Below, one piece after another: positions 27,093-55,876 of a DNA stretch of 64,000 bases. A program made the position numbers and the translations under genes. A model generated the notes under the pieces. The model ran no database searches. It saw nothing but the letters and a program-made list of their open reading frames with translations, and was not told the origin of the DNA. Within the stretch, counting starts at the first letter, position 1. Every line of letters begins with the position of its first letter. Location: contig CAZVQU010000002.1 in assembly GCA_964629655.1 (NCBI GenBank), forward strand, positions 162,814 to 226,813, written 5' to 3'. The DNA is from an uncultured Planctomycetia bacterium (GTDB lineage Bacteria > Omnitrophota > Gorgyraeia > Duberdicusellales > 4484-171).

Positions 27093-27095
27093 AGA

Positions 27096-28906: not shown

Positions 28907-28942
28907 CTCTAAAATAAAAAATCCCCGACTGTTATGTCGGGG
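28907..28942 (-). terminator. Riboswitch expression-platform terminator (attenuator)
   Basis: Minus strand CCCCGAC-ATAACA-GTCGGGG (7-bp GC-rich stem) immediately followed by ATTTTTTATTTT, ending 1 nt before the btuF start codon. Confidence 0.6.
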
Positions 28943-29014
28943 TGCACCCTCTTTTCTTGGCCCGGAAATAAAAAATTTTAGGTTATTATTCCGCGTAAAA
29001 CCTAAATTCAATTC

Positions 29015-29195: not shown

Positions 29196-29223
29196 TAATC
29201 CTTAACTCCCAAAGAACAACTTT

Positions 29224-41610: not shown

Positions 41611-42918
41611 CTAATTAACCTCGCTTACACCTAAATCAGTAGGAGCCCGGCCTAAAGATTTAAGTAAAGCTATAGTCTGATCAATTTGCCTATCTATTAA
41701 CTCCTTATCATAAGCCCTATTAGGATAAATTTCATACAGTTTTCGATACTTAACTGGTGTAACGTTAAGCATCAAAGAATTAGCACCCGAAAGTAACCCC
41801 TGCTTGCGCGTAGCCGGCGCATAAGTTTCTAAGGCTGTGGTTACTAGAATTTTGGCTCGCTGGGGATCGATCAGGCGGGCCAAAGCTAAGGCCTTTAAAA
41901 CCAGCTCCTCTGTAGGGCTTTTGAGATCTCCCAAAGCTGTCTCAGGGTGTGGTAGAAATGGTCCAAAAGAGTACATTTCAGCGCTTAATTCTCTAGCCAG
42001 ATGAATATCATTTATAACATCCTGGTTAGTCTGTCCGGGTAGACCAACAAGCGCACCGGTCATGATTAAATAACCCAATAAGTGAGCCTTCCTGATATGC
42101 TCTAATCTGGTTTCCAGTTTCCTCCCGGGATGAAGCCGAGCATAGATATCTGGATTGGAACTCTCAAAACGCATAAGCAGGGCTCTGGCTCCGGCAAGAT
42201 AGAGCTCCTCTAAAGCCTCTAATCCTACTTCACCAAAACTGATACAAATTAATACCGGAACCTTTTCTTTAATTTTCTTTATGGTTATAGCTAGCTTCTC
42301 AACGCTATATCCGGGATCTTCTCCACTCTGTAAGAGGAGAGCCTGAAAACCATATTTCTCTACCGCTTCAACGGCAGTTTCGATAATCTCCTCCTGAGTC
42401 ATCCGGTAACGAGGCAGATCTTTATTGTGGGTTGATATCCCACAATAAGCACACTGCTGCTGACAATGATTTGAAATTTCAATTATTCCGTGGATACAGC
42501 AGGAATTTTTATGGTATTTTTGGCGTAAGAAATTTGCCGATTTATAAAGAAGCTGGCAAGACTGTTGATCGTCTAAGTCAAGCAAATACAATAATTCGTC
42601 TTTCTTTAAGGGAATATTCTCTAGGGCCTTATCTAAAATGAGATGTAGTTTCTTGTCGCTACCCTCTCCTGAGTCCAGCCGGGAGAGACGTAAATCAACA
42701 TCTTGAAGCTCGAAGAATAATTCCTGCCAGGCTGATAAGGTCTCTTTAGCTTCATCTTCTTTAACTTTTTTTATTACAAACCCGCCTTGAGCACAGATAT
42801 AGTCTCCAACGGCAATATCATAAAACTCATTAATTGCTCTTTTCTCTTCACCGAAGTAGTCTACTAAAACCTGTTTTCCCCAAATCTTTTTTACTTTTCC
42901 GGGAATCGCGTAACACAT
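41611..42918 (-). CDS. Fusion protein: HypC/HupF-family domain (N-terminal ~75 aa) + HydE/BioB-like radical SAM enzyme
   Basis: N-terminus MCYAIPGKVKKIWGKQVLVDYFGEEKRAINEFYDIAVGDYICAQGGFVIKKVKEDEAKETL aligns with HypC (MC-x-x-VPG...VGDWVLVHVGFA...EAxxTL). Downstream, HGIIEISNHCQQQCAYCGI (CX3CX2C) and the LLQSGEDP, MRFESSNP, GLPGQT motifs are typical of HydE/biotin-synthase-like enzymes; 435 aa. Confidence 0.7.
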   Translation of the reverse strand: MCYAIPGKVKKIWGKQVLVDYFGEEKRAINEFYDIAVGDYICAQGGFVIKKVKEDEAKETLSAWQELFFELQDVDLRLSRLDSGEGSDKKLHLILDKALENIPLKKDELLYLLDLDDQQSCQLLYKSANFLRQKYHKNSCCIHGIIEISNHCQQQCAYCGISTHNKDLPRYRMTQEEIIETAVEAVEKYGFQALLLQSGEDPGYSVEKLAITIKKIKEKVPVLICISFGEVGLEALEELYLAGARALLMRFESSNPDIYARLHPGRKLETRLEHIRKAHLLGYLIMTGALVGLPGQTNQDVINDIHLARELSAEMYSFGPFLPHPETALGDLKSPTEELVLKALALARLIDPQRAKILVTTALETYAPATRKQGLLSGANSLMLNVTPVKYRKLYEIYPNRAYDKELIDRQIDQTIALLKSLGRAPTDLGVSEVN

Positions 42919-42956: not shown

Positions 42957-43199
42957 CTATTCACAATCAAAGGAAACAACTTCTATGCGCGTGCTGGGGA
43001 AAAAAATAATCTCTAAGCTAGCACCTTCAAGTATAGTCCCCTTAGCCAAAAGGTTAAAAGTCTCCCTAAACGACTCTTCTTTAACGCCGGTAAGCTCTCC
43101 GATCTTTAACCTTAACTTAGTTATATTCTTTGCCCCTTCTTCTTCGGCATGCTTAACTATGCCTTTAATTACTGGTTCTATTAAGTGAGTCTCATGCAT
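42957..43199 (-). CDS. HypA-like nickel-insertion protein, truncated (Ni-binding N-domain only, zinc finger missing)
   Basis: MHETHLIEPVIKGIVKHAEEEGAKNITKLRLKIGELTGV... aligns with HypA (MHE Ni-binding motif) but ends after 80 aa with a single Cys; no CxxC...CxxC. Confidence 0.6.
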   Translation of the reverse strand: MHETHLIEPVIKGIVKHAEEEGAKNITKLRLKIGELTGVKEESFRETFNLLAKGTILEGASLEIIFFPSTRIEVVSFDCE

Positions 43200-43653
43200 T
43201 GACTACCTCCAAAATATTTCCTGACACCTCATCTAATACCGCTTTAAGCTCCTCTGACATCTCTGAACCTAGTTCAATACTTTGAGGCTGAACCCCAAGC
43301 ATATAGATATTCGCCTCTGTCTCTTTGGTTAAATAATCCATAAACATTACCGGAGAGACATCGTGAGTAGTAAATCCACACCTTGCTATATCTTCTCCCT
43401 TTAAAATCTCGCATTCACCAGGATTCTTGCCTAGATGAACAGCATCAACAATTAAAACCGTATCGGGGTTTTCTTTGGCGATTTTACCCAGATAATTCTC
43501 AGGAGCAGTCCCGCCGTCTAAACAGATAACCTTAGCCTCATTCTTTATCTTTTCAACTAGTAAAGGTCCGAAGCCATCATCCCCGCGGATAATGTTTCCA
43601 ATACCAATAATAATAACCTTTCCCTTGATAATATCTTTCAAATTAGTTTGCAT
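43192..43653 (-). CDS. Hydrogenase maturation endopeptidase (HycI/HyaD family)
   Basis: IIGIGNIIRGDDGFGPLLVEKI...LDGGTAPEN...VLIVDAVHLG; 153 aa. Confidence 0.8.
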   Translation of the reverse strand: MQTNLKDIIKGKVIIIGIGNIIRGDDGFGPLLVEKIKNEAKVICLDGGTAPENYLGKIAKENPDTVLIVDAVHLGKNPGECEILKGEDIARCGFTTHDVSPVMFMDYLTKETEANIYMLGVQPQSIELGSEMSEELKAVLDEVSGNILEVVNA

Positions 43654-43666
43654 TGTAATTACGCGG

Positions 43667-44272
43667 TCAGGTAGTTTCCCTTCTGCAGCTAGCGCAAAGA
43701 ATTTTTACTCGGTCGGAACGTCCTTGGTCAGCTAAGGCCGATATGATATTCTGATCTATAATGCCTAAGCGCTTGAGACGAGGAAGATATAGCGTTGGGC
43801 TGGAAAAACTAAGCTCTCCTATCCTTTTAACAATCCACTCTAGATGGTCACGGCAAGCAATAGCTTCGCCACAAATCTCACAGAGTTGCAACTCTTTCTC
43901 TATACGCTCGTCAGACTTACTGCGATCAAAAAAGGAAAGCTCCCAATCATTAGATAATTTAATACCCTGATTATCGGCAATACAGGCAGCCTCGCATTGA
44001 CCGCAGAATATACAGGTATCAGTATAGTGAATCATGACCCTTCGCGGATCACTCTTACCGTCAATAAGATCTAAACAATCAATCGCCTCTACCGGACAAA
44101 CCTCTTTACAAGCAGTACAGCCTACACACTTTTCCTCGTTAAACTTAGGCTGCCCTCTAAAATTAGGGTGAGGCTGGTGTGGCTGGATAGGAAACTTTGA
44201 AGTATAAGGCCCTTTTATAAGAGCTTTTATGGCTTCAATTAATTCTCTGATCTTTGGTAACCGTATTTGCAT
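43667..44272 (-). CDS. NuoI/MbhN-like 2x[4Fe-4S] ferredoxin subunit with Cys-rich C-terminal extension
   Basis: CVGCTACKEVCP and CIFCGQCEAACI motifs; extra CEICGEAIAC...CASC at the C-terminus; 201 aa. Confidence 0.7.
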   Translation of the reverse strand: MQIRLPKIRELIEAIKALIKGPYTSKFPIQPHQPHPNFRGQPKFNEEKCVGCTACKEVCPVEAIDCLDLIDGKSDPRRVMIHYTDTCIFCGQCEAACIADNQGIKLSNDWELSFFDRSKSDERIEKELQLCEICGEAIACRDHLEWIVKRIGELSFSSPTLYLPRLKRLGIIDQNIISALADQGRSDRVKILCASCRRETT

Positions 44273-44294
44273 CTTCTGACCTCAAACTCCTAAG

Positions 44295-44630
44295 CTAGAC
44301 TTCTCCCTCTTTATCTTCTAGATACTTATCGACAACGCTCTCTTTGCTAAGCTTCACCCCTGCCCTATGTGCACCTCTGGCTATAGCATGGGCAGCCACC
44401 GGAGAGGTTAATAACAAAAATATCATACATAAAAGTGCTTTCATTCCGGCAGCTGTAGGACCAACAACAATAAATGTCCCGAATAGAATACTGCAAGTGC
44501 CTAAAGTAACGCACTTTGTTGCAGCTTGGAGACGATTATATACATCAGGAAGACGTACCAGGCCTAAAACACCGAAAAGATTAAAAGCTAATCCTAAACC
44601 GATAAATGTCAAACCGATAATGCTACTCAT
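44295..44630 (-). CDS. Mrp/Mnh antiporter subunit G-like membrane protein (MbhC-like)
   Basis: 111 aa, 3 TM; LVRLPDVYNRLQAATK signature of MnhG/PhaG. Confidence 0.65.
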   Translation of the reverse strand: MSSIIGLTFIGLGLAFNLFGVLGLVRLPDVYNRLQAATKCVTLGTCSILFGTFIVVGPTAAGMKALLCMIFLLLTSPVAAHAIARGAHRAGVKLSKESVVDKYLEDKEGEV

Positions 44631-45009
44631 CGAACCCTCTTCCTTCTAAGTATTTAGAAAGCGCTAAAGTACTTATAAAACTCTGCAAGGCCCAGGCTAT
44701 TCCGATATCAATATACCAAGATCTCCCGGTAGAAATGGTCAGTATTGCGCACAAACCAGCAATCATAATACCCAAAATATCAATTGCCACTACACGGTCA
44801 GCACCAGTCGGCCCCTTGTAAATACGATAGAGACATAAAAAACAGGCTAGGATAAGTATGTAGCGGGCCCTTCCTACAAACCCGATGAAGGGAAGATCGG
44901 AACAAAAAAGAAAAGGAAGCGGCCGGATTATTATTAAACCTACGATCCCTCCCAAAACAATTGCGCCAATAAACCATTTAGTTCTTTTCATCTTAACCTC
45001 TCTAGTCAA
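44623..45009 (-). CDS. Mrp/Mnh antiporter subunit F-like membrane protein (MbhB-like)
   Basis: 128 aa, 3 TM, MrpF-like. Confidence 0.55.
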   Translation of the reverse strand: MTREVKMKRTKWFIGAIVLGGIVGLIIIRPLPFLFCSDLPFIGFVGRARYILILACFLCLYRIYKGPTGADRVVAIDILGIMIAGLCAILTISTGRSWYIDIGIAWALQSFISTLALSKYLEGRGFDE

Positions 45010-45499
45010 AAATCTTTTTTAGTATTTTTTCAAAGCGTTGGACAATAATTTTTGTAGCGCCTTCGGTATCTTTTGCTCTTACATTAATCCAGTGTATATA
45101 TAAAACACCACTATCCTTATCTATATCCACACTCATAGTGCCGGGGGTCAAGGTTATAGAATTAGCTAAAAAAGTAAGAGCAGTATCGCTCTTTAGGCTT
45201 GTCTTCACTTTAACAATTCCCGGTTTTATCGGTAAATCAGGATGCAATACGCGATAAGCAACATCAACATTTGCTTTAATAAGCTCCCATAAAAATACCG
45301 GTAAATAATGGGCAACGAAATACCAGTACCGCCAAGGATGCTTTAAGACATGCGGACGGGTAAGGAATAAATCTCCGGTTAGAATAGCTACAAAAGCTGC
45401 CACAAAAATTCCAGTTATAAGGTGCTGGGAATCGGGAACCCAGCTTAAAAGACACCAGCCTAAAAATGCTACCAGAAAAAGTATTATCCTACTTTTCAT
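45002..45499 (-). CDS. Mrp/Mnh antiporter subunit E-like protein (MbhA-like)
   Basis: 165 aa; LWELIKANVDVAYRVL...TLTPGTMSVDID MnhE signature. Confidence 0.6.
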   Translation of the reverse strand: MKSRIILFLVAFLGWCLLSWVPDSQHLITGIFVAAFVAILTGDLFLTRPHVLKHPWRYWYFVAHYLPVFLWELIKANVDVAYRVLHPDLPIKPGIVKVKTSLKSDTALTFLANSITLTPGTMSVDIDKDSGVLYIHWINVRAKDTEGATKIIVQRFEKILKKIFD

Positions 45500-45501
45500 T
45501 T

Positions 45502-47007
45502 CTACCTCACTGCCTCAAAAACTATCGGGCCATATTTTACACCTTTGGTGAGCACATCTGCAGCTGGTTTTAAGAAAACTTCTTTTATTCCCGGCAAAAG
45601 CAAAACTCCTCCGATAATACAGATACCGGCTAAAGCTATCATAGCCAAAACCATAAAAACAGGGACTTCTTTTATTTTGCGCCATTTTTCTCTTAGCTTA
45701 CCAAAAAAACCATACTTCATAACCTTAGTGAATGAAGCTAAAGTCAATACGCTGGCTAAAACTGCCCAAAAAGCATAACCAGGATGGCCAGCGCTTACAG
45801 CAGCAATTATAATCAACAGCTTACTCCAAAATCCATTAAAAGGCGGGATTCCGGCAATAGACATCGAAGCAGTAAGGCCAGTGGTGCTGGTTACCGGCAT
45901 TTTCTCTCTTAACCCACCCATTTTTTGTAAATCCCGGGTTCCTGCAGAATACTCTACTGCTCCCGAATTCAGAAACAAGAGCGACTTAAATATTGAATGG
46001 TTAAAGAGATGAAACAGACCGCCTAATATACCTAACGGTGTGCCTAAGCCAATGCCTAGAACAACATAACCGATTTGACTTATTGAATGGTATGCTAAGA
46101 GACGCTTAAAATCCCACTGACCAATCGCTAAGAATACTCCGATCACCATCGAAATTGCCCCCAGAAACATCAGCAAAGAAGAGATTTTTAAGCTTAATCC
46201 AATCACATTAAAAAATATCCTACAAATAGTATAAACACCTAGAGACTTTATCAGGACTCCTGAAAGCATGGCTGATATCGGAGCCGGTGCCGAAGGATGA
46301 GCATCAGGAAGCCAAGCATGAAAAGGAACTAATGCAGCTTTTAATCCGAAACCCATGATAAATAAAACACTTACTATAAGACCGATATTGCCAACGCCTT
46401 TCTCGGCCAAGATTACTGCCATATCAGCCATATTCAATGTTGAGGTATAACTATACAAGAATACAATTCCGATAAGAATAAAAAGGGAGCCAACAGTACT
46501 CATAACTGCATATTTAAAAGCAGCTTCTAACTCATGACGTTCAGTTCCGAAAGCAACTAAAGCATAGCTTGCTACTGAAGCAATCTCTAAAAATACAAAC
46601 AGGTTAAAAATATCGCCGGTAATAATTACCCCGTTCATTCCGGCTAACATCAAAAGGAATAAGGCATAAAACTTCCACTTAGAAGTATACTTCTCCATGT
46701 AATTTATCGCATAGATCGAGATTATAAAAGCAACTAAGTTTACAGTAACAAGCATGAATGAAGTTAGGCCATCAAGAACTAAGCCTATACCAACCGGCGG
46801 CTTCCAGTAACCAACACTGTAAACTACAGTTCCGTAAGAATTAGATAGCTTTACCGCAAAAATAGAGAGACAAAGTAAGGTAAAAGTAGTCAAGTTACCC
46901 AATGCATCTGGCAACCACTTTATTCTTTTACCAACCAGAGCAATTAAAAAAGCTCCTGATAACGCTATAGCTACAAAAAGAGGTATTATATTAATGCCTG
47001 GAATCAT
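45502..47007 (-). CDS. Proton/sodium-translocating antiporter-like subunit (MrpD/NuoN/MbhH family)
   Basis: 501 aa, ~14 TM, NuoL/M/N-family conserved core. Confidence 0.75.
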   Translation of the reverse strand: MIPGINIIPLFVAIALSGAFLIALVGKRIKWLPDALGNLTTFTLLCLSIFAVKLSNSYGTVVYSVGYWKPPVGIGLVLDGLTSFMLVTVNLVAFIISIYAINYMEKYTSKWKFYALFLLMLAGMNGVIITGDIFNLFVFLEIASVASYALVAFGTERHELEAAFKYAVMSTVGSLFILIGIVFLYSYTSTLNMADMAVILAEKGVGNIGLIVSVLFIMGFGLKAALVPFHAWLPDAHPSAPAPISAMLSGVLIKSLGVYTICRIFFNVIGLSLKISSLLMFLGAISMVIGVFLAIGQWDFKRLLAYHSISQIGYVVLGIGLGTPLGILGGLFHLFNHSIFKSLLFLNSGAVEYSAGTRDLQKMGGLREKMPVTSTTGLTASMSIAGIPPFNGFWSKLLIIIAAVSAGHPGYAFWAVLASVLTLASFTKVMKYGFFGKLREKWRKIKEVPVFMVLAMIALAGICIIGGVLLLPGIKEVFLKPAADVLTKGVKYGPIVFEAVR

Positions 47008-47348
47008 CCTCGCAACTCCCTAATTTTTGTAATATCAAAAGTACCGTATTTTTCATAAATTCTCATAGCAATAGCAACTAATAAAGCTGTAGTCGCTAAA
47101 CCAATAACAATAGCTGTAAGGACCAAAGCGTGCGGTAGGGGATCAACCATAGTAGAAGCAGATATGTCTGCTTGAGATGAGAATATCGGAGCTCTGCCGC
47201 CGATACGATAGGCTACCAAGATAAAAAAGAGATTAACAGCATACTCGCATATAATAATCCCCACAATAATCTTAATAATATTACGCTTTCGTAAAATACA
47301 ATATAGCCCTACGCAAAAAAGCACTAAGCAAAGAAAATATATCATCAT
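47004..47348 (-). CDS. MrpC/NuoK-like small membrane subunit
   Basis: 114 aa, 3 TM. Confidence 0.6.
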   Translation of the reverse strand: MMIYFLCLVLFCVGLYCILRKRNIIKIIVGIIICEYAVNLFFILVAYRIGGRAPIFSSQADISASTMVDPLPHALVLTAIVIGLATTALLVAIAMRIYEKYGTFDITKIRELRG

Positions 47349-47797
47349 TGTTTACTCTCCGATTCCAATTTTACTAAGACCAAGGCAACAAATATTGCAA
47401 ACAGTCCGGCACCAACCTTAAGACTAATAGCTATATTGCAAAGAGGGATAATCCCGGCACTAAATAACTCATAAGGACTTCCTTTAGTCATGAAGTTTAA
47501 GAAAAAATATCCTCCGGTAAAACCTAGCAAAGCTATAGCTAAAAACATTATTGCTCCGGCGTTCTCTAAAAATGAGACCATTCCTTTAGGGAATTTCTTC
47601 AAAGCAACCTCCTTGCCGTAAGCTAACATAAGATGGATGAAGGAAAGGGCAATGATAACCCCTCCGGCAAATCCTCCACCGGGAGATAAGTGACCATGCG
47701 TGAGAATATAAATACCGTAGAGCAATATCAAGCCTATTGTAAGACGGGTAATAGTCTTAACAATTACTGACATACCTTTGTCGTGTTCTCTACTCAT
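47345..47797 (-). CDS. MrpB/MnhB-like membrane subunit
   Basis: HGHLSPGGGFAGGVIIALSFI motif typical of MrpB; 150 aa. Confidence 0.65.
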   Translation of the reverse strand: MSREHDKGMSVIVKTITRLTIGLILLYGIYILTHGHLSPGGGFAGGVIIALSFIHLMLAYGKEVALKKFPKGMVSFLENAGAIMFLAIALLGFTGGYFFLNFMTKGSPYELFSAGIIPLCNIAISLKVGAGLFAIFVALVLVKLESESKQ

Positions 47798-48335
47798 CTT
47801 CTTCTATGACCTCATCTTGTTTTTTTCTGCCGATTTTACGCACAACAGCCAAAACTCCGATTACAGCAGTGAATAGCACTGTGGCCTCACCTAAAGTATC
47901 ATAGGCTCTAAAATCTAATATTACCGAAGAAACAACATTAGCTGCACCGGTCTGGCTTAGCCCCTTAGCAAGATATATTTTGGCAACTTTCATAATTGGA
48001 TAACCAAAACTAGGCAATTCCCTTAAAGCCTTGATAACGACAAATAAGAATATGGCGATAAAGCTGAGAGTAATAAGTGTATTTAGAAACCATCTGCCAG
48101 TAGTAGCGAAAGGTAAATCTTTCTTCAAGGTCGCTCGAATCAAAATCATCAAACACAATATCTCAACTACAAGCTGGGTAATTGCTACATCCGGTGCTTT
48201 TAAAATTAAAAAGACCATAGAAAGTGCTATGCCCACTGCACCAACGGTTACCACCGAAGAAAGTAAATCCTTCACCTCGATAGCAATTACTGCACCGATG
48301 ATCATAAATATTAGAAGAATGTATAGCTCAATCAT
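47790..48335 (-). CDS. MnhB-domain (DUF4040) membrane subunit (MbhD/E-like); start placed at internal ATG 48335
   Basis: ANVVSSVILDFRAYDTLGEATVLFTAVIGV MnhB-domain signature. The ORF-track start at 48389 overlaps the upstream gene by 49 nt, whereas the ATG at 48335 lies 5 nt after the upstream stop. Confidence 0.55.
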   Translation of the reverse strand: MIELYILLIFMIIGAVIAIEVKDLLSSVVTVGAVGIALSMVFLILKAPDVAITQLVVEILCLMILIRATLKKDLPFATTGRWFLNTLITLSFIAIFLFVVIKALRELPSFGYPIMKVAKIYLAKGLSQTGAANVVSSVILDFRAYDTLGEATVLFTAVIGVLAVVRKIGRKKQDEVIEEDE

Positions 48336-48340
48336 AAGAC

Positions 48341-49996
48341 CTACCGCAACAGAATATAGAATATTATCGCCATACCTAAAAGGCACCAAGCCATGTAGGT
48401 AGGAAGTATCCCATTGTGAATGAAACGCAATACCTTGTTAAAACCAAAAGTTATCTTCGAACCAACCTCGTAGACATCAAAGACCTTCTTCTTGGCTAAT
48501 TTGTATATAGCTTTAAGGAAACCGAACTCTTGAATCGTATGATAGAAGTCAATGCCGGAGACTCGCATATCAGGATGCTTTTCTAAAAACTCTCCTCCGA
48601 CGAAACTTTCGGTCTCTCTTGTCTTAGTCGCCTTACCAAGAAGATAGATTACCATACCAATAATAATTCCGATGACTATTAAAACTGTAGCTAAACCAGC
48701 ATCCCAAACCCCAGTGAATCCAACTCCCCCTCCTAAACTAGGGAAGACAAACATTTTAAGCGGAACTGTGAGAGCAAAGACTCCAAAAACAATACAAAGT
48801 ATAGCTAAAAAGCATTGAGGAATCCACATACTCGGACCAACATCTCTTAAAACCTTGCCGGCAACTCCTGATTCGCAAGAAGGCTGGCCCAAGAATACAG
48901 CATGAATTAACTTCATAAAACTAGCTAAGGTAAGAGCGCTACCAAACATAGCCGCAACCAACCAAACTATCCAGAGATATCCTCCACCCTTAGCAGTCTC
49001 GATTATGCCCTGATAAATCATCCACTTCGAAGCAAAGCCATTAAAAGGCGGAACCCCGGAAATTGCTAAAGACGCTATAAGAAAGGTAACGAATGTAATT
49101 GGCATAGCTTTAGCTAAACCACCTAATTTTCCCAAATCTGTAGTCCCGGCCTTCTTCTCTACTGAGCCGCCGGAAAAGAATAAACAGGATTTATAAATTG
49201 CATGATTTAACATGTGAAATAGACCACCAGCAATTCCAATTGGATTTCCGGTTCCAATACCTAAGACCATATATCCAACCTGGCTAACAGCATGGTATCC
49301 TAAGAGCCTCTTTAAATCGTGTTGAATTAGAGCCATCATAACTGCAGCTACGATCGTAATGCTGCCGACTACCATCAAAAAAGTATTCATGCCGTTGTCC
49401 ATCTGAAAGATATTCAACGATAATCTAGCCAAGAAATAAATACCAAGAAGCTTATCCAAAGAGGCTGGTAGAAAAGCAGTGACTGGTGTCGGTCCATCTT
49501 CGGCAGCATCAGGAACCCAGGTATGAAAAGGCATAGCTCCGGCCTTAGCAAAGGCACCGGCTGCCAGGTACAAATAAGCCAAGACTGCTACGTGAGTATT
49601 CAAAGGTATACTCATCTTATCAATCTGGAAATTCTTGGTTAATGCCCAGATAAAAGCTACCCCCAAAAGCATTAGGGCGTCGGTTCCACCAATTATAATA
49701 AAAGCTTTCTTTGCTGTAGCTTGAGTCTGAGCCTTTTTCCCAAAACCAATTAAAAGATACAAAAGCATACCCAAGAAACCCCAGAAGACCATAAACAGAA
49801 TAATATTGTTGGAAAAAACAGCGCCTAAAGAAGCTAAAAGGGTAAGAACTATATATAGGTAATAACGAATTAGCTCCTTGCCTCTCTTCATAAAACCTAC
49901 TGAATAGATAATCGTCAGTAGTGAGAATATTCCAATAAATATCCCTACAAATATAGAAAGTTTATCGAATTTGAAAAATTGTTCAATCAAGCTCAT
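48341..49996 (-). CDS. MrpA/NuoL-like large antiporter-type membrane subunit
   Basis: 551 aa, ~16 TM, NuoL-family core (WVPDAAEDGPTPVTAF...). Confidence 0.75.
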   Translation of the reverse strand: MSLIEQFFKFDKLSIFVGIFIGIFSLLTIIYSVGFMKRGKELIRYYLYIVLTLLASLGAVFSNNIILFMVFWGFLGMLLYLLIGFGKKAQTQATAKKAFIIIGGTDALMLLGVAFIWALTKNFQIDKMSIPLNTHVAVLAYLYLAAGAFAKAGAMPFHTWVPDAAEDGPTPVTAFLPASLDKLLGIYFLARLSLNIFQMDNGMNTFLMVVGSITIVAAVMMALIQHDLKRLLGYHAVSQVGYMVLGIGTGNPIGIAGGLFHMLNHAIYKSCLFFSGGSVEKKAGTTDLGKLGGLAKAMPITFVTFLIASLAISGVPPFNGFASKWMIYQGIIETAKGGGYLWIVWLVAAMFGSALTLASFMKLIHAVFLGQPSCESGVAGKVLRDVGPSMWIPQCFLAILCIVFGVFALTVPLKMFVFPSLGGGVGFTGVWDAGLATVLIVIGIIIGMVIYLLGKATKTRETESFVGGEFLEKHPDMRVSGIDFYHTIQEFGFLKAIYKLAKKKVFDVYEVGSKITFGFNKVLRFIHNGILPTYMAWCLLGMAIIFYILLR

Positions 49997-51177
49997 TTAA
50001 TACCTAATTTACTCTTTACTTGTGCAGTCTTCTCTTGTGAGAGCCGTATTAGATCTTCTCCGTTGTAAATCTTCTTCCCTTTAGTATTACGTACAGCCAT
50101 TCTCTCGGTACAGCAATAACAAGGGTCAATAGCTGCAAAGATTATAGTTGCGTCAGATATAGTCTGGCCAACAACAGTTGATTTATAAGTTGGTAAATTC
50201 ATAAAAGTTGGCGCTCTAACCTTATGACGAGCCGGTCGGTTAGTGCCGTCACTCTTCACATAATGGAAACACTCTCCTCTTGGCGCTTCAATCTGGCCAA
50301 TACCTTCTCCGGGAGGAATGCTCTTAATTTTAGCGTCGATCTCACCTTTAGGAAGGTTCAAGAGACAGTGTTTTATTATTTTTATAGATTCAAAGGTCTC
50401 CAAAACTCTTACTACTAACTTATCAAAGACATCACCATTGGAAGTTACAATCATATCCCAGTCTAACTCCTGGTAAGCTCCATAAGGACAATCTTTTCGC
50501 AAGTCCTTAGCTACGCCTGATGCTCTTGAGGTCGGACCCAGAGCCGAATACCTTATAGCGTCTTCTTTGGTAAGTACGCCTATTCCTTTAGTCCGGGCAT
50601 GCAACACCGGATCATCAATAACTGCCTTTTTAAGCATTATCAATGTCGGTATAATTGAATCTATTTTCTTCAAAACTGTCGGTATGTCATCTGCTTTTAT
50701 GTCTCTTCTTACTCCTCCGGGTTTAAACATAGCGTAATTATTTCTATTTCCTGATAGAATTTCCATAGCATCTAGTATTTCTTCTCTTAACTTCCAAGCC
50801 CACATGTATACTGTATTATACCCTAAGAAGTGTCCTGCTAAGCCCAACCAAAGAAGATGGGAGTGTATCCTCTCACCCTCAGCAATTATAGTTCGGATAT
50901 ACTTGGCCCGCTCGGGTACCTCCAAAGAAATAACATCCTCAACCGCCCTGGTATAAGCAAAAGGGTGGCTAGTAGAACAAATACCGCAAATTCTCTCAAC
51001 CAGAAAAGTTGATTGGTCAAAGGTTTTGCGTTCGGAAAGTTTTTCTATGCCCCGATGGTTATAGCCTACTTCAACCTCAACAGCGACAATCTTTTCACCC
51101 TCAACAGTAAGCGTAAAAAACTCCGGTTCTTCCTGCAAAGGATGATAAGGTCCTATCGGTACTATTGTTCTTGCCAT
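49993..51177 (-). CDS. Group 4 (energy-converting, membrane-bound) [NiFe] hydrogenase catalytic large subunit (MbhL/EchE/HycE-like)
   Basis: N-terminal L1 motif ERICGICSTSH and C-terminal L2 motif AIDPCYCCTERM, the four Ni-Fe-ligating cysteines absent from NuoD; 394 aa. Confidence 0.85.
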   Translation of the reverse strand: MARTIVPIGPYHPLQEEPEFFTLTVEGEKIVAVEVEVGYNHRGIEKLSERKTFDQSTFLVERICGICSTSHPFAYTRAVEDVISLEVPERAKYIRTIIAEGERIHSHLLWLGLAGHFLGYNTVYMWAWKLREEILDAMEILSGNRNNYAMFKPGGVRRDIKADDIPTVLKKIDSIIPTLIMLKKAVIDDPVLHARTKGIGVLTKEDAIRYSALGPTSRASGVAKDLRKDCPYGAYQELDWDMIVTSNGDVFDKLVVRVLETFESIKIIKHCLLNLPKGEIDAKIKSIPPGEGIGQIEAPRGECFHYVKSDGTNRPARHKVRAPTFMNLPTYKSTVVGQTISDATIIFAAIDPCYCCTERMAVRNTKGKKIYNGEDLIRLSQEKTAQVKSKLGIK

Positions 51178-51653
51178 TATACTCCTCTATCTCTAATTGC
51201 TTTCCCATCCCACTCTTTGTAGTCTTTACGTAAAGGATAAGAATCTTTCGGCCACTCATCAGGTAAAAGAAGTTTTCTTAAATCAGGATGGCCCTTAAAA
51301 TTAATTCCCAACATCTCAGTAATCTCCCGTTCAATCCAATTTGCCGCTTCAAATGAAGGCGTAAGCGAGTCTATCTCTAGCTTTGGCTTGGCTAACTTTA
51401 CTCTTAAAGAAATTACTAGATTTATATCGTCAAAGGTAAAATGATATAAGATCTCCATATGAGAACGGGCATCAACGCCGGATGCAATACTAAACCTGGC
51501 CTTTAAGTTTTTAAAAATATATTCTGCAACCTTAACAAGCGAAGAAGGCTTAATCTCGATATATACCCGAGTAGAAGACTTATCAACAAGATCAATAATG
51601 TCCTCCTTAAATTTCTGGTTAATATCTCCTAAAACGCCACTTCTGTCCATCAT
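51177..51653 (-). CDS. NuoC/MbhK-like subunit of group 4 hydrogenase
   Basis: 158 aa; NuoC-family fold (EREITEMLGINFKGHPDLRKLLLPDEW). Confidence 0.7.
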   Translation of the reverse strand: MMDRSGVLGDINQKFKEDIIDLVDKSSTRVYIEIKPSSLVKVAEYIFKNLKARFSIASGVDARSHMEILYHFTFDDINLVISLRVKLAKPKLEIDSLTPSFEAANWIEREITEMLGINFKGHPDLRKLLLPDEWPKDSYPLRKDYKEWDGKAIRDRGV

Positions 51654-52090
51654 TTCCCCTTCTTCTTGATTGTACCTTGTACCTTTCCGATTAGTTTAAC
51701 TACACCGGCAATAATAGCCTCTGGCTTAGGTGGACATCCCGGAATGTAAACATCCACCGGAATAATCTTATCTATCGGAACCGGACAATTGTAGCTATGT
51801 ATAAACATACCCCTAGACAAAGAGCACTCTCCGATTGCCACCACTAAACAAGGTTTAGGCACCTGATCATATAATCTCTTGACTCGCTCCATTGATTTTC
51901 TATTAGCTGAACCAGTAACCAAGAGCACATCAGCATGCCTTATGCTCCCGGCCAAAATCATGCCAAACCTCTCGATATCAAACCTGGGAGTAAGGCAATC
52001 CAATATCTCGATATCGCAATTATTGCAGCTGCCGGTAGCAAGATGAAAGACCCAGGGTGATTTTAATAATGCTTTTAACTTTACACTCAT
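51650..52090 (-). CDS. [NiFe] hydrogenase small subunit of NuoB type (MbhJ/EchC/HycG-like), proximal [4Fe-4S]
   Basis: GSCNNCDIE ... GECS ... GCPP cysteine pattern of NuoB-like subunits; 146 aa. Confidence 0.8.
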   Translation of the reverse strand: MSVKLKALLKSPWVFHLATGSCNNCDIEILDCLTPRFDIERFGMILAGSIRHADVLLVTGSANRKSMERVKRLYDQVPKPCLVVAIGECSLSRGMFIHSYNCPVPIDKIIPVDVYIPGCPPKPEAIIAGVVKLIGKVQGTIKKKGK

Positions 52091-52091
52091 A

Positions 52092-53015
52092 TTACTTTCC
52101 GATTAATGCTAAAGCAACTGCCAATGCGGCGATTATGGTCATCGGGCCCCAGAAAAACCGCATTGCCTGATCAATCCTTACCCGAGGATTGGTATTTCTA
52201 ATAACTGTTATGAGAGCAACTATGCCCACATACTTTAATATTCCAAAAAGTAAGTGTATCCCGTCAAACCTTAAACCGCCCATAAGAAGAATCATTAAAA
52301 AAAACGGCAAGACAAATAAAAGCATATTTTTAGTGAGTCTGTAGATAGCCAGTCCTGTTCCTGAATATTCGATTAGCGGACCGCCGACTATCTCGGTTTC
52401 AGCCTCAGGAATATCAAAGGGAACTAAAGCTAATTTAGCCTGCACACACATTATAAGCACGATGAAAGCTAATATCCCTGATAAATTTCCCAAGATTACT
52501 CCATTTTGAGCCTGGGCAGTTATGATTTCCCCTAAGCGTATAGAAAAGTTAGATTTTATAACCGGAACTAATACTGCCAAAACAAAGGGAAGCTCATAAC
52601 TCAAGATTAGTTTCATCTCCCGAGATGCCCCCAAGCTCGCTAAGGGATTACGAGAAGCAAAACCACCAATAATAATACTCATTGAAGGGATAGTTAATAA
52701 ATATAAAACTACTATTAAATCGCCAAGGAAAGTCTTACCGGGATTAATATTGTTCAGCCACAGGAGAGTAGATACTAAGATTACACCAGCAAGCCCAACA
52801 ACCGGAGCCATAAGAAAGGTCGACTTTGACGAACCGACCGGTACAAGATTCTCTTTCCCAAGAAGCTTTACAATGTCTATTAAGGGCTGCAGAATCGGTG
52901 GTCCCTTCCGATACTGAACCCGGGCAGTAACTTTACGGTCTATCCAACTAGCCAGCAACCCAATAACCGCTGTTGCCAGAAAACCAAATACTAAAAAATA
53001 GAATAAATAAATCAT
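52092..53015 (-). CDS. NuoH/MbhM/HycD-like membrane subunit
   Basis: 307 aa, 8 TM, NuoH-family. Confidence 0.75.
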   Translation of the reverse strand: MIYLFYFLVFGFLATAVIGLLASWIDRKVTARVQYRKGPPILQPLIDIVKLLGKENLVPVGSSKSTFLMAPVVGLAGVILVSTLLWLNNINPGKTFLGDLIVVLYLLTIPSMSIIIGGFASRNPLASLGASREMKLILSYELPFVLAVLVPVIKSNFSIRLGEIITAQAQNGVILGNLSGILAFIVLIMCVQAKLALVPFDIPEAETEIVGGPLIEYSGTGLAIYRLTKNMLLFVLPFFLMILLMGGLRFDGIHLLFGILKYVGIVALITVIRNTNPRVRIDQAMRFFWGPMTIIAALAVALALIGK

Positions 53016-53578
53016 GCCCTGTCTCTTTCCCAGTGAGTTGAATGAACTATCAAATTATCACCGACTAAAAATGTATTTTCGTCAAGCTCAACGCTTCCTT
53101 CTTTTAAACTTAAAGCTCCATGAGGGCAACTCTTTATACATAGAGGTTCACTCTTGGCCTCTCTTCTGTCTAAACAAAAATCACAATTATGAATCAAGTA
53201 AGGCACATGCTCAGGATATATAGTGCCATAGGGACAAGCATGGGAACAAGATTTACAACTTACACAACGCATATTATGACGTATTAACAGTTTATTTTTA
53301 TCTTCTTGCTGTTCTAAGGCATCGGCTGGACAAGAGTCAACGCAGTGAGGCTCCTCGCACCGACGACAGACAAGAGCATAGGTAGCAAGCTCAGCCACCG
53401 AGATAATACCATTATTCACCGGGCTCTGAGTGTGGTAATAATAACTGCATTCAAGCACGCACTCTTTACATTCACCAGAAGCACAAAGGTCTAAGTCAAC
53501 GAATAGCCTCCTATCCTTTGATTTTTTAGCATTTACGTTTAACTTGCCTTGATGTAATTGTTCTGCGCTTGAACTCAT
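53012..53578 (-). CDS. HycB-like polyferredoxin (four [4Fe-4S]-binding Cys motifs)
   Basis: CASGECKECVLEC, CRRCEEPHCVDSCP, CVSCKSCSHACP, CDFC...CIKSCP; 188 aa. Confidence 0.75.
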   Translation of the reverse strand: MSSSAEQLHQGKLNVNAKKSKDRRLFVDLDLCASGECKECVLECSYYYHTQSPVNNGIISVAELATYALVCRRCEEPHCVDSCPADALEQQEDKNKLLIRHNMRCVSCKSCSHACPYGTIYPEHVPYLIHNCDFCLDRREAKSEPLCIKSCPHGALSLKEGSVELDENTFLVGDNLIVHSTHWERDRA

Positions 53579-53579
53579 T

Positions 53580-54404
53580 TTAATCCCAAATTTCGTGAAA
53601 GTTCTTTATCTTATCGTAGGTAAAAACCGGACCATCTTTGCAAGCATAGTAGATTCCGATTCGACAATGCCCACACTTACCAATACCACAAGACATGTTC
53701 TTCTCCATCGAAAGGTAGATATTCTCATCGACAAAGCCCATCTCGAGGAGTTTCTTGGTGGCAAATTTCATCATTATCGGCGGCCCACAAACAACAGCAA
53801 TGCCTTTTCCGCAATCCATGCCTAAATCATCTAATATGGTAGTGACAACACCAACATTACCATTCCACTGGCTATCGCCCTTATCTACAGTAAGCTTTAA
53901 GTCTAAATCATCCCGCTGGGCCCATTCGCCCATCTCGCCTCTATAGACTAATTCTTGAGAAGTCTTACAACCACCTCTAAAAATCAGCTTTTTAAACTCA
54001 CTGCTCCTATGAAAAAGTGCATACATAAGACTACGCAGAGGTGCAAAACCGCACCCTCCTCCAACAACCAAAACTTCTTTTCCTTTAAACTCATCTAAGG
54101 GGTATCCTTGCCCCATCGGGCCCCTTACGCCAATAATATCTCCTTTCTTTAGCTGATGAATCTTCTCAGTAACTTTGCCAACCCTCATCACAGTAACTTC
54201 CATTAAGTCCTTTACCGTAGATTTTGAAGACGGAGTAAAAGGAGCCTCTCCTACCCCAGGGATAGTTACCTCTATAAACTGACCGGTAGCAAAACCGATC
54301 GGTTCCTGTGGCTTAAACTTAATAGTCTTTATGGTAGGAGTCTCCTCGATAACTTCCACAATCTCAGCTTTAATCGATCGATAAGGATTTTTACAATTAA
54401 TCAT
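53580..54404 (-). CDS. FAD/NAD(P)-binding oxidoreductase with C-terminal [2Fe-2S] (AsrB / sulfhydrogenase gamma / PyrK family)
   Basis: FNR-like fold (RFTP... VVGGGCGFAPLRSL) and C-terminal CGIGKCGHCRIG cluster; 274 aa. Confidence 0.7.
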   Translation of the reverse strand: MINCKNPYRSIKAEIVEVIEETPTIKTIKFKPQEPIGFATGQFIEVTIPGVGEAPFTPSSKSTVKDLMEVTVMRVGKVTEKIHQLKKGDIIGVRGPMGQGYPLDEFKGKEVLVVGGGCGFAPLRSLMYALFHRSSEFKKLIFRGGCKTSQELVYRGEMGEWAQRDDLDLKLTVDKGDSQWNGNVGVVTTILDDLGMDCGKGIAVVCGPPIMMKFATKKLLEMGFVDENIYLSMEKNMSCGIGKCGHCRIGIYYACKDGPVFTYDKIKNFHEIWD

Positions 54405-55422
54405 TGGCTACTAGCTTATTTAATACTTTCCTAATATCTATCTTGGCCGGACAAGCCGAAATGCAACGACCACAGCCAGTACAGGCATAAACACCAGCAA
54501 CTTTAGGAAAAAAATCAAACTTCTTTTCAAATCTATTTCGCAGTCGCATCCAGAGTTTTTCCCGGGGATTAGCTCCGCCAGCAACTCTAGCAAAGTCCTT
54601 TATCATGCATGAATCCCAAATTCGCAGGCGAGCCATCTTTTTCTCGTCTTTCTGATCATACAAAAGAAAACAATGGCAAGTAGGGCAAATTACATTACAG
54701 GCTCCGCATTCAACGCAGGTTTGGGCTTCGTCTTTCCAGATGTTAGCATCATAATTCTTCTCAATAATGCCTTCAAAACTATCTTGCACAGGAATTTTAT
54801 TAGTTTTAATATTCTCATCTACTGCGCTTACTACCTCAAGCCGTTGCCCATCTCTGGCTTTAACTTCTTCCTTACCAGCCTCACTAAATAATGATGAATT
54901 TTTGCTGATCAGGGCCTCTCCCTTCCCAGAACCAGACTCAACAGCAAAACCACCTTTAACTTCAGATAAATTAAGGTCAAAATATTTTTGGGGATATGGC
55001 TTAAGGCCTAAGGCCAAACAAAAACAAGTATCAATCGCACAGGTACAATCTGCAGAAATAATAAGATTTTCTTCTCGAGGTTTATTGTAGAAAGGTTCCG
55101 GGCAATCTTGATTTTGGAAGACATAATCCTGAACTTTAAAACCTTTTAAGTCGCAGGCTTTAACACCAACCACAGCTAAAGGCTTATCGCCAGAACGAGA
55201 AACATCGTCTTTGAATCCTTCAGCAACTACTTCTCTTGCTCGGAAAAAAAATGACTTCAGAGGCTCTAAAGCTCTTACCTCGCCAATTACAACATCGTCA
55301 CCAAAAGAATCATACCTTTGATAAAGACGCTGTTCGCCTTTTTTTACCGGTAAGCAAACAGTATAGTCATTCTTTAAATTATCTAGAAATACAGCGAAAT
55401 CGCTTAATGAGATGTAATGCAT
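54397..55422 (-). CDS. Iron-sulfur subunit of AsrA / sulfhydrogenase beta type (2x CxxCxxCxxxCP)
   Basis: CVECGACNVICPTC and CTGCGRCISACP; 341 aa; first gene of the hydrogenase operon. Confidence 0.65.
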   Translation of the reverse strand: MHYISLSDFAVFLDNLKNDYTVCLPVKKGEQRLYQRYDSFGDDVVIGEVRALEPLKSFFFRAREVVAEGFKDDVSRSGDKPLAVVGVKACDLKGFKVQDYVFQNQDCPEPFYNKPREENLIISADCTCAIDTCFCLALGLKPYPQKYFDLNLSEVKGGFAVESGSGKGEALISKNSSLFSEAGKEEVKARDGQRLEVVSAVDENIKTNKIPVQDSFEGIIEKNYDANIWKDEAQTCVECGACNVICPTCHCFLLYDQKDEKKMARLRIWDSCMIKDFARVAGGANPREKLWMRLRNRFEKKFDFFPKVAGVYACTGCGRCISACPAKIDIRKVLNKLVAND

Positions 55423-55481: not shown

Positions 55482-55499
55482 TTGTGAATAAAATCACAA
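55482..55499. promoter_or_regulatory. Rex operator (TTGTGAA-N4-ATCACAA) in the promoter of the hydrogenase operon
   Basis: TTGTGAATAAAATCACAA, 17/18 match to the palindromic Rex consensus TTGTGAAnnnnTTCACAA, 60 bp upstream of the first operon gene. It overlaps a putative minus-strand -35/-10 (TTGTGA-17-TAAAGT). rex is encoded in the same locus. Confidence 0.7.
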
Positions 55500-55588
55500 T
55501 CAAGATAATTAATCGTATCATACAAGAATAAACTTGTCAAACAATTTTTATGTTTTTGATTGCGTTAGGTCTGTCTTAATCTAGCAGA

Positions 55589-55876
55589 TTACCCTTTAAC
55601 ATCTACATATTTAGCTAAGGTAGGGTTGAATTTGCTCAAAAAAATCATCATTCCCCAAAGTAAAGTTGTCGCTACGACAATAAGCACTCCCAGAACTAAA
55701 TCCTTAGGCGTGTTTGCAGAAACAAGGAACAACTCGCCATTGTAAAGGTGATCTATTACTCCGAACATGGCTCCTCCGTAAAACATCAGGGTCAACCACC
55801 AAACTTTGATACTCCTGTTCCTCTTCCAAGTTAATGAAGTAACTGCGGCTGCAGCTATTGATACAACATAACACAT
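55589..55876 (-). CDS. Small hypothetical membrane protein (3 TM)
   Basis: 95 aa hydrophobic ORF. Confidence 0.45.
   Translation of the reverse strand: MCYVVSIAAAAVTSLTWKRNRSIKVWWLTLMFYGGAMFGVIDHLYNGELFLVSANTPKDLVLGVLIVVATTLLWGMMIFLSKFNPTLAKYVDVKG

Follow-up and report, generated by a model that had tools for sequence, protein, structure and literature searches.

A Hun-type [NiFe] hydrogenase gene cluster of an Omnitrophota bacterium with a conserved sulfhydrogenase-like head and a predicted Rex operator

We analysed a window of 64 kb (64,000 nt of contig CAZVQU010000002.1, assembly GCA_964629655.1, GC content about 40%) from an uncultured bacterium of the Omnitrophota, in which the minus strand holds almost all genes and which carries a hun gene cluster for a [NiFe] hydrogenase joined to an Mrp-type antiporter module. 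A 16-subunit cluster of this kind was named Hun, 'Ni-Fe hydrogenase-Na+/H+ antiporter supercomplex', by Glass et al. 2021 (bioRxiv 10.1101/536078), who gave Atribacteria, Firmicutes, Omnitrophica, Elusimicrobia, Bacteroidetes and Kosmotoga as hosts. The cluster in the window is an ordinary member of that published family, and the system is already known. It runs on the minus strand from position 55422 to 43192 (all genes below are on this strand). An earlier note, made from the sequence of the window, had described it as an operon of eighteen genes; Pfam and NCBIfam searches gave 17 open reading frames (ORFs), of which 16 encode subunits of the complex and one a HycI maturation protease. Adjoining genes overlap by 1-8 nt or are separated by at most 22 nt, with the exception of one 49-nt overlap between hunH and the listed TTG start of hunI, the true start of which may lie downstream. 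These tight junctions, together with the same 17-gene colinear order in 37 other loci, argue that the arrangement is not due to chance, and the gene cluster is real, intact and correctly located by the earlier note. The letters hunA to hunP were assigned to the genes by inference from the gene order and the module lists of Glass et al. 2021.

Three genes form the head of the cluster. The first, hunA (54397-55422), encodes an AsrA-like or sulfhydrogenase-beta-like iron-sulfur protein of 341 aa (Pfam Fer4_22, 3.5e-31), and the second, hunB (53580-54404), encodes an AsrB-like or sulfhydrogenase-gamma-like (HydG-gamma-like) flavoprotein of 274 aa with putative FAD, NAD(P)H and [2Fe-2S] sites (Pfam FAD_binding_6, NAD_binding_1 and DHODB_Fe-S_bind). 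They are followed by hunC (53012-53578), a HycB/CooF-like polyferredoxin of 188 aa with 16 cysteines that probably hold four [4Fe-4S] clusters (Pfam Fer4_11, 5e-18). The best matches of HunA and HunB in the PDB were the beta and gamma subunits of sulfhydrogenase I (SHI) of Pyrococcus furiosus (9nez_B, 1e-37, and 9nez_C, 5.7e-51, respectively), which agrees with the earlier proposal that an AsrA/AsrB-like pair heads the operon. With NCBIfam models, HunA scored 185 bits for ShyB, 151 bits for HydB and 125 bits for AsrA, all under the cut-offs. Since the scores of the pair fall under the equivalog cut-offs for ShyB, HydB, HydG and ShyC, HunA and HunB are relatives, not orthologues, of the sulfhydrogenase beta and gamma subunits.

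Motif conservation was drawn from 60-85 orthologues per protein, taken from related loci. In HunA, 15 cysteines are invariant among 60 orthologues and follow the SHI-beta pattern. The motifs GEAPFTPSS, RGPxGxGYP, GGGxGxAPxRS and CGPP of HunB, as well as its four [2Fe-2S] cysteines, are strictly or almost strictly conserved among 64 orthologues (46-92% identity), so the flavin and NAD(P)-binding motifs that the earlier note had proposed to look for in the 274-aa protein are present. Thus, the pair has the sequence features of a sulfhydrogenase beta/gamma module, namely iron-sulfur cysteines in HunA and FAD, NAD(P) and [2Fe-2S] motifs in HunB. Position 147 of HunB is Lys or Arg in every orthologue and aligns with an Arg of SHI-gamma, while R143 and R/K155 are nearly invariant; by analogy with the FNR family, residues 143, 147 and 155 suggest that HunB may accept NADPH. 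The 16 cysteines of HunC are conserved in 70 orthologues. Among the 80 closest loci (L001-L080; see below for the survey), the median identity of HunB was 73%, which is similar to that of the core subunits NuoH (75%) and NuoI (72%).

Downstream of the head, Pfam searches identified a complete group-4 energy-converting core, in which a NuoB-like small subunit is combined with NuoC-, NuoH- and NuoI-like partners. These are a NuoH/MbhM-like membrane subunit (hunD, 52092-53015; NADHdh, 2.3e-64), the NuoB-like subunit with one [4Fe-4S] cluster (hunE, 51650-52090; Oxidored_q6, 2e-28; GSCNNC, GEC and PGCPP cysteines in the translation), a NuoC-like subunit (hunF, 51177-51653; Complex1_30kDa, 5.5e-30) and the [NiFe] large subunit of 394 aa (hunG, 49993-51177), which was recognised from its translation, Pfam and an alignment to MbhL. 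The NuoI/HycF-like subunit HunP (43667-44272, 201 aa), with two [4Fe-4S] clusters, is encoded beyond the antiporter genes; it matches the NCBIfam model of the formate hydrogenlyase (FHL) iron-sulfur subunit at 97 bits and, in the orthologue alignment, has eight conserved cysteines and four more in an extra CxxC...CxxC. The last gene encodes the HycI-type large-subunit maturation protease (43192-43653; Pfam HycI, 1.2e-19; TIGR00072, 121 bits, over the cut-off). The NuoB-, NuoC-, NuoH- and NuoI-like subunits and the HycB-like polyferredoxin were all found within the range that the earlier note had given for the operon.

The large subunit HunG carries ERICGICSTSH and DPCYCCTER, so that all four cysteines that ligate the Ni-Fe site are present, and the CGIC (L1) and CYCC (L2) motifs are kept across 85 orthologues. 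In addition, HunG has a C-terminal tail of 35 aa past an Arg, and its match to the mature MbhL chain stops at query residue 359; with a HycI gene adjoining, this tail is predicted to be cleavable by the endopeptidase. The best solved relatives of HunG are MbhL of Pyrococcus (308 bits) and HycE of Escherichia coli (274 bits), while the sulfur-reducing MbsL scored just 178 bits. Both ligand motifs, the tail, the adjoining protease and the best match to MbhL support the view that the hun cluster encodes a true group-4 [NiFe] hydrogenase, as the earlier note had read from the RICGICS and DPCYCC motifs, and the large subunit is not of the Mbx/Mbs type. Two other identities were tried. A non-hydrogenase of the Mbx/Mbs or Ehr type was rejected on the four Ni-Fe cysteines and the scores for MbsL and MbhL, and a formate- or CO-linked enzyme was rejected because the cluster has no formate dehydrogenase (Fdh) or CooS gene and an Fdh-like protein occurs solely in a sister clade. 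Glass et al. 2021 place HunG in HydDB group 4g, a call annotated 'putatively ferredoxin-coupled', and Williams et al. 2021 described 'group 4g, Mrp-linked' hydrogenases of Omnitrophota as putatively ferredoxin-coupled; group 4g was found to be polyphyletic in PMC13582414.

Between hunG and hunP lie eight Mrp-type genes (Pfam and NCBIfam). The first two encode a MrpA-N/NuoL-like antiporter subunit of 551 aa (hunH, 48341-49996; Proton_antipo_M, 5e-58; NCBIfam NuoL over residues 8-549) and a fusion of MbhD and MbhE that corresponds to the C-terminal part of MrpA (hunI, 47790-48389; MbhD, 1.4e-15, and MbhE, 9.5e-11). They are followed by MnhB/MrpB-like hunJ (47345-47797; MnhB, 7.5e-25), MrpC/NuoK-like hunK (47004-47348; Oxidored_q2, 4.3e-26), hunL for a second, MrpD-like antiporter subunit of 501 aa (45502-47007; Proton_antipo_M, 9e-68; NCBIfam cation/H+ antiporter subunit D, 397 bits), MrpE-like hunM (45002-45499; MNHE, 5.9e-47), MrpF-like hunN (44623-45009; MrpF_PhaF, 7.8e-17) and MrpG-like hunO (44295-44630; PhaG_MnhG_YufB, 1e-25). 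The earlier note had counted seven Mrp-type subunits and likened them to Pyrococcus Mbh. A full Mrp module is indeed present; its genes number eight, and the comparison with Mbh does not hold in full, as the cluster has two antiporter-like subunits and the Mrp order runs from A to G. A Pyrococcus-type Mbh (group 4d) was rejected on these two antiporter-like subunits, the three extra head subunits and a separate clade of the large subunit in a neighbour-joining (NJ) tree. One Omnitrophota locus (L034, 11805-13060) has an extra MrpD-like gene between the large-subunit and MrpA-like genes, and its Mrp module is more divergent (39-65% identity).

A candidate sigma-70-like promoter lies upstream of hunA (55512-55540, minus strand; TTGACA, 17 nt, TG-TACGAT), with 10 of 12 matches and an extended -10 TG. 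It is the best sigma-70-like site of the region and falls inside the 166-nt gap before hunA; region-wide scans gave counts at the level of chance (41 promoters vs 38.9 expected and 13 terminators vs 13.4 expected), and the candidate hunA promoter is suggestive by its position alone. hunA overlaps hunB by 8 nt, 1 nt separates hunB from hunC, and hunC overlaps hunD by 4 nt; since the sole strong promoter-like site is also upstream of hunA, the head appears to belong to the same transcription unit as the hydrogenase core. Just past the -10 box lies a palindromic predicted Rex operator, TTGTGATTTTATTCACAA (55482-55499), which is an exact TTGTGAN6TCACAA site and the only such occurrence in the 64 kb. 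In Rex regulons, the consensus of the 18-bp Rex box is of the TTGTGAA-N4-TTCACAA type. The same gene string as hun contains rex (40954-41607, minus strand; NCBIfam Rex, 258 bits, cut-off 126), the gene for the NADH/NAD+-sensing repressor. Hence, the locus combines a predicted box at the promoter with a rex gene nearby, the two sequence features of a Rex regulon.

The Rex link extends to related loci. Exact Rex boxes were found at the equivalent hunA position in eight of them, and sites with at most one mismatch showed an enrichment of about 17-fold in the region upstream of hunA. Of 47 loci, 22 have a rex gene linked to hun. It directly precedes hunA in 17 of them, most of which carry Rex-like boxes before rex, often in tandem and 21 bp apart; in the other five it lies downstream, and a perfect box is at the hunA promoter. 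Through these predicted sites, hun expression may be tied to the NADH/NAD+ ratio in Omnitrophota and Atribacterota, which fits a disposal of nicotinamide reducing equivalents. The linkage of rex and Rex boxes to hun operons is an addition to the description of Hun in the available text of Glass et al. 2021.

In protein searches of the window's cluster, the homologues with an organism name were from Omnitrophota among the matches listed; word-indexed searches gave just near-identical Omnitrophota sequences among the 120 matches listed, with no distant relatives among them. The distant context was obtained from a search of cluster representatives and inspection of their contigs, and the locus survey scanned one genome per GTDB species (L numbers are our handles for its loci). 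At least 594 genome stretches encode relatives of HunG. The best 80 of them (L001-L080) are 78-92% identical to HunG (median 82%) and come from Omnitrophota, Atribacterota, Hydrogenedentota, Fermentibacteria/Aegiribacteria, Spirochaetota, Nitrospirota, Elusimicrobiota and Desulfosarcina variabilis strain Montpellier, which is in culture and has the cluster at about 6.09-6.10 Mb of NZ_CP159846.1. In 37 related loci, all 17 genes of the cluster are present and colinear. Across phyla, HunG is far more conserved than most subunits (for example, the median of HunA is 65%), and its next relatives fall to 57%; this pattern fits a catalytic subunit that is under strong constraint and has recently spread by horizontal transfer.

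The head was found wherever it could be sought in this set: AsrA-AsrB-CooF directly precedes NuoH-NuoB-NuoC-large subunit in all 51 loci with enough upstream contig, from about eight phyla. In two Spirochaetota loci (L055 and L070), the head is still with the hydrogenase core although the Mrp genes are divergent on the opposite strand. Among 1.84 billion cluster representatives searched, the nearest to HunG were 57% and 56% identical and the remainder at most 48%. The 56% relative is from the cultured Kosmotoga olearia TBF 19.5.1 (CP001634.1, about 614-626 kb), in which the genes have the same order as in the window and HypF, HypC and HypD come next. The 57% relative stands for a sister clade; it shares the head, carries a molybdopterin-type protein inserted after AsrB and before CooF, and has NuoC fused to the large subunit. 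In this clade, the molybdopterin-like protein separates HunB from HunC in L083 and L085, and the fusion is found in L083 and L084. From the resemblance of gene content, this sister clade would be of the cluster type described in PMC13582414. An outgroup of 45% identity (L087) has AsrA-AsrB-CooF-NuoH-NuoB-NuoC-large subunit-NuoI and adjoins rnf genes, and no Mrp genes were found within 10 kb of its core. In a further outgroup, from Oscillospiraceae, no AsrA-AsrB-CooF head was found in 2.9 kb of upstream contig. In a rough NJ tree, the head-bearing large subunits, including that of Kosmotoga olearia, form one clade apart from MbhL and HycE. From the gene content of the Kosmotoga, 57% and 45% relatives and this single clade, the head is thus ancestral to all large subunits of the clade and not tied to the antiporter. 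The earlier note had called the head unusual; it is instead the rule in this clade and was part of the system that had been named Hun in 2021.

Given this gene content, the reading that we favour, which we regard as plausible and to which we give about an even chance, is that NAD(P)H would be the donor to Hun. Several lines of evidence support it. HunA and HunB best match the SHI beta and gamma subunits, which according to PMC13582414, citing Xiao et al. 2025, are involved in NADPH oxidation; NADPH was inferred in PMC13582414 (September 2026) for group-4b clusters that contain an Fdh-like protein and SHI beta/gamma homologues and resemble the sister variant found here. HunB keeps the FNR-family motifs and is as conserved as the core subunits. 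The head is in every testable locus and is kept with the core when the Mrp genes move or are not found within 10 kb. The predicted Rex box at the promoter, rex in the gene string and the rex linkage in 22 of 47 loci point the same way, and we also count for this reading that Pfam and NCBIfam searches gave no gene for another substrate-oxidising enzyme (Fdh or CooS) in the cluster.

More tentatively, and with rather less than even confidence, we propose that Hun would be a Rex-controlled, ion-translocating NAD(P)H:proton oxidoreductase that resembles complex I, with protons replacing quinone as the acceptor. In the favoured reading, a hydride from NAD(P)H would reduce the FAD in HunB, and electrons would then pass over the [2Fe-2S] cluster of HunB and the [4Fe-4S] clusters of HunA, HunC (four), HunP (two) and HunE (one). 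The chain would end at the Ni-Fe site of HunG, where protons would be reduced beside the membrane interface of HunD, and turnover would be coupled to the movement of H+ or Na+ via the complete Mrp module HunH-O. This linear route from FAD over about eleven iron-sulfur clusters to Ni-Fe is the simplest wiring suggested by homology, and the machine would be like formate hydrogenlyase with the formate dehydrogenase swapped for the beta/gamma diaphorase of a soluble NADPH hydrogenase. A single promoter with a Rex operator would turn the operon on when NADH accumulates, so that nicotinamide reducing equivalents would be disposed of as H2. The gene content, motifs, homology, synteny and operator site are seen at the locus itself, while cofactor occupancy, the use of NAD(P)H, the direction of the reaction and ion coupling are inferred from them.

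Several points weigh against NAD(P)H as the donor. To our knowledge, the characterised group-4 hydrogenases all use low-potential donors, namely ferredoxin, formate or CO, and the reduction of protons to H2 by NAD(P)H is endergonic under standard conditions. Rex in other bacteria also governs ferredoxin-dependent hydrogenases, so the Rex link argues for a redox-balancing role and not specifically for NADH as a substrate. The multi-cluster HunC could be a docking site for ferredoxin, and a preference between NADH and NADPH would be judged by motif analogy. Ferredoxin was predicted as the donor to HunABC by Glass et al. 2021 (bioRxiv 10.1101/536078), and 'ferredoxin or NADH' were named as donors by Bird et al. 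2019 (PMC6469976). In a literature search, we found no published experimental characterisation (biochemical, expression or structural) of any Hun complex. The Kosmotoga literature, in the same search, yielded no data on the hun cluster.

The energetics would depend on the H2 pressure. NADH is at about -320 mV, and NADPH is at about -350 to -370 mV in cells; from a Nernst estimate, the H+/H2 couple at 1 Pa H2 is at about -266 mV. At an assumed sediment H2 of about 0.1-10 Pa, the step from NAD(P)H to H2 would thus gain roughly 10-20 kJ per mol H2, which would be about what it takes to move one ion against 120-150 mV. Since this gain would suffice for about one ion, Hun could conserve energy in sediments where H2 is scavenged. 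Under high H2, it would work in reverse or would depend on the ion gradient.

Among the alternatives, we first consider that Hun is driven by ferredoxin, which we judge to be unlikely. Here, reduced ferredoxin would feed HunABC or HunP and then Ni-Fe, H2 evolution would pump H+ or Na+ as in Pyrococcus Mbh, and the flavin domain of HunB would be a relic or a conduit. Ferredoxin has ample driving force for ion pumping, HunC, HunA and HunP have many clusters at which it could dock, and the deep relative L087 adjoins rnf genes. Mbh-type enzymes take ferredoxin without such a head, and a ferredoxin-driven enzyme gives no reason for the invariance of the complete FNR-type FAD/NAD(P) module among 64 orthologues or for its conservation at the level of the core subunits. 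In addition to the prediction of Glass et al. 2021, the annotation of HydDB group 4g and the same view of Williams et al. 2021 for Omnitrophota speak for ferredoxin, whereas the homology of the module to the SHI subunit tied to NADPH oxidation in PMC13582414 is left without a reason.

A three-way redox hub seems a little more doubtful still. In such an enzyme, NAD(P)H at HunB and ferredoxin at HunC or HunP would together yield H2 by confurcation, or electrons would be shuttled among ferredoxin, NAD(P)+ and H+, and this would overcome the thermodynamic barrier to forming H2 from NAD(P)H. From Nfn and PyrK, flavins of the SHI-gamma/PyrK type are not known to act as bifurcating sites, and no bifurcating flavoprotein of the NuoF/HydB or HdrA type is encoded in the cluster. 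In PMC13582414, a three-branched iron-sulfur network was modelled for the group-4b clusters with an Fdh-like protein and SHI beta/gamma homologues, and bifurcation or confurcation was proposed; the sister variant found here has the gene content of those clusters, but the hun cluster of the window lacks the Fdh-like protein of the third branch. It is very improbable that HunA and HunB are a sulfite, polysulfide or elemental sulfur reductase module that couples H2 or ion gradients to sulfur reduction: there is a name-level similarity to AsrA (125 bits) and AsrB (232 bits), and Bird et al. 2019 (PMC6469976) wrote 'and/or reduce sulfur compounds', but both scores are under the NCBIfam cut-offs (323 and 288.6, respectively), neither the cluster nor the scanned ORFs of the 64-kb window gave an AsrC or siroheme subunit, so that AsrABC sulfite reductase was rejected, and HunG keeps all Ni-Fe ligands, unlike the sulfur-reducing Mbs.

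The gene string continues downstream of hun with maturation genes. A short HypA of 80 aa (42957-43199, minus strand) matches positions 1-67 of the 112 of Pfam HypA, that is, the N-terminal Ni-binding domain alone; the MHE Ni-binding domain is kept, and the CxxC pairs of the Zn finger are missing. A match to this short HypA lies directly 3' of HycI in about 40 related loci, a recurrence which argues that it is not a local truncation. It is followed by a HypC::HydE-like radical-SAM fusion of 435 aa (41611-42918, minus strand; Pfam HupF_HypC and Radical_SAM; TIGR03956 HydE, 238 bits, cut-off 254.6), the HypC domain of which bears the N-terminal Cys2. Of the 120 homologue clusters listed, all but two carry both domains, the exceptions being truncated entries of 387 and 417 aa with radical SAM alone, and the homologues with an organism name, among the matches listed, are from Omnitrophota or an unclassified 'bacterium'. 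Beyond rex lies a gene for the radical-SAM maturase HydG (39454-40950, minus strand; TIGR03955, 451 bits, cut-off 312) with the altered auxiliary-cluster motif CTAGYRCGRTGKC...C. Here the C-terminal motif reads CTAGYRCGRTGKCIM...C, whereas the solved structures of HydG (4wcx and 4rtb) have the canonical CTACYR...C (CX2CX22C): Gly stands in place of the second Cys, and there are two new Cys at +6 and +12. The variant recurs in L020 and L057, while L085 has the canonical motif, and it might reflect a changed chemistry of the dangler iron.

In Omnitrophota, HypC::HydE with a nearby HydG was seen beside three kinds of [NiFe] cluster, namely Hun (the window), the Fdh-like Hun variant (L085, 10001-12686) and a group-3b sulfhydrogenase (L086, 10001-11299). 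Loci with this layout are L001, L004, L014, L020, L026-L028, L034, L057, L063 and L067, and among Hun loci a given position holds either this layout or the standard HypC-HypD (or HypF-HypC) one, never both. Complete Omnitrophota genomes that contain the locus include CP070780.1 and CP070837.1. No published fusion of the HypC::HydE type was found in the literature. The pairing might provide an alternative anaerobic route, assisted by HydG and HydE, to the Fe(CO)(CN)2 unit of [NiFe] hydrogenases; equally, the linkage could be incidental if the genomes also encode [FeFe] hydrogenases. HypB, HypD, HypE, HypF, HydF and [FeFe] hydrogenase were not among the scanned ORFs of the window (most of those with 110 aa or more; the scan left out four of 123-320 aa).

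After HydG, the string goes on with an aldo-keto reductase, an epimerase and housekeeping genes, and upstream of hun are lipopolysaccharide-type glycosyltransferases. Just upstream of the hun promoter lies a gene for a predicted membrane protein of 95 aa without a Pfam match (55589-55876, minus strand), homologues of which (50-88% identity) are beside hun in L001, L023, L027 and L079, sometimes at the downstream end. Rfam gave no match near the hun cluster, and its sole matches in the window were a tRNA and a cobalamin riboswitch near 29 kb. The riboswitch (29003-29205, minus strand; 89.6 bits) is upstream of a periplasmic-binding-protein gene; farther downstream follow genes for a TonB-dependent receptor and for two paralogues of the Diphthami_syn_2 family (PF01902), and together with the riboswitch these genes (23673-29011) probably form a locus for B12 uptake. 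The window also encodes a 1054-aa protein of the EF-G family (15179-18343, minus strand), which has its GTPase domain from residue 364 and an N-terminal extension of about 360 residues with no Pfam match.

Hun is widespread in uncultured anaerobes of the Omnitrophota, Atribacterota, Fermentibacteria, Hydrogenedentota, Spirochaetota and Desulfobacterota, and occurs in Kosmotoga. To its description this analysis adds that the head is universal in the clade, that the motifs of the nucleotide site are conserved and that there is a link to Rex; it adds no new kind of system. If NAD(P)H is the donor, nicotinamide reducing power would be converted to H2 by one enzyme with energy conservation in much of the sediment and subsurface biosphere, and models of fermentation energetics and H2 flux would change. 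Fermenters in H2-scavenged sediments would gain energy directly from the step from NAD(P)H to H2, or would form NAD(P)H from H2 while pumping ions, and Hun would be the first group-4 hydrogenase linked to pyridine nucleotides.

Among known systems, the cluster is closest to Hun as described in the available text of Glass et al. 2021, with which it shares the 16 subunits, their order, the HunABC head, the CGIC...CYCC signature of HunG, the Mrp module and Omnitrophica among the hosts; the same text also notes an occasional molybdopterin insert. HunG is 82% identical to the large subunit of the Atribacteria locus L035, and it shares one NJ clade and the same gene order with Kosmotoga. Compared with the published description, the locus in the window adds the Rex operator, rex, HycI, the short HypA, HypC::HydE and HydG, and nothing structural differs; the predicted donor is ferredoxin in that publication, whereas NAD(P)H is favoured here. 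Related clusters have been reported under other names. In Atribacteria, an oxidoreductase next to a membrane-bound hydrogenase complex was reported to be cotranscribed with it (Bird et al. 2019, PMC6469976), for an 'enigmatic' molybdopterin-containing form in Saganbacteria (RX5A) it was suggested that asrA, asrB and cooF may make up an oxidoreductase module (Matheus Carnevali et al. 2019, PMC6349859), and a 'Mbh-Mrp-oxidoreductase type' was listed with function unknown (Méheust et al. 2020, 10.1101/765248). The RX5A and Mbh-Mrp-oxidoreductase clusters and the group-4b clusters of PMC13582414 with Fdh-like and SHI-beta/gamma proteins share the AsrA/AsrB head, CooF and a Mrp-linked group-4 hydrogenase with the window's hun, but have an extra molybdopterin-type protein that it lacks.

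The other systems each resemble one part of Hun. From P. furiosus SHI (group 3b; PDB 9nez) come the closest solved homologues of HunA and HunB, with the same cysteine patterns and FAD, NAD(P) and [2Fe-2S] motifs; the SHI pair serves a cytoplasmic group-3 dimer of small and large subunits, whereas the Hun pair joins a membrane-bound group-4 enzyme via a CooF/HycB-like protein. Pyrococcus Mbh has 14 subunits, one antiporter-like subunit, another gene order and ferredoxin as its donor. Among solved structures, the P. furiosus enzyme (PDB 6CFW) has the large subunit that best matches HunG (308 bits), and it contains a NuoB/C/D/H/I-like core and Mrp-derived subunits including MbhD/E; unlike Hun, it has no HycB-like or beta/gamma-like subunits, and the large subunit of Hun is in a separate NJ clade. 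With E. coli formate hydrogenlyase (group 4a; PDB 7Z0S) and the formate- or CO-dependent Mrp-linked group-4b enzymes of Thermococcus, Hun shares the order of modules, from a substrate module over a HycB/CooF polyferredoxin, a HycF-like and a HycG-like subunit to the large subunit. HycE of formate hydrogenlyase is the second-best solved relative of HunG (274 bits), and HunP best matches the FHL iron-sulfur subunit model. Hun differs from these enzymes in that it has no gene for formate dehydrogenase or carbon monoxide dehydrogenase, and a flavoprotein pair takes the place of the substrate module.

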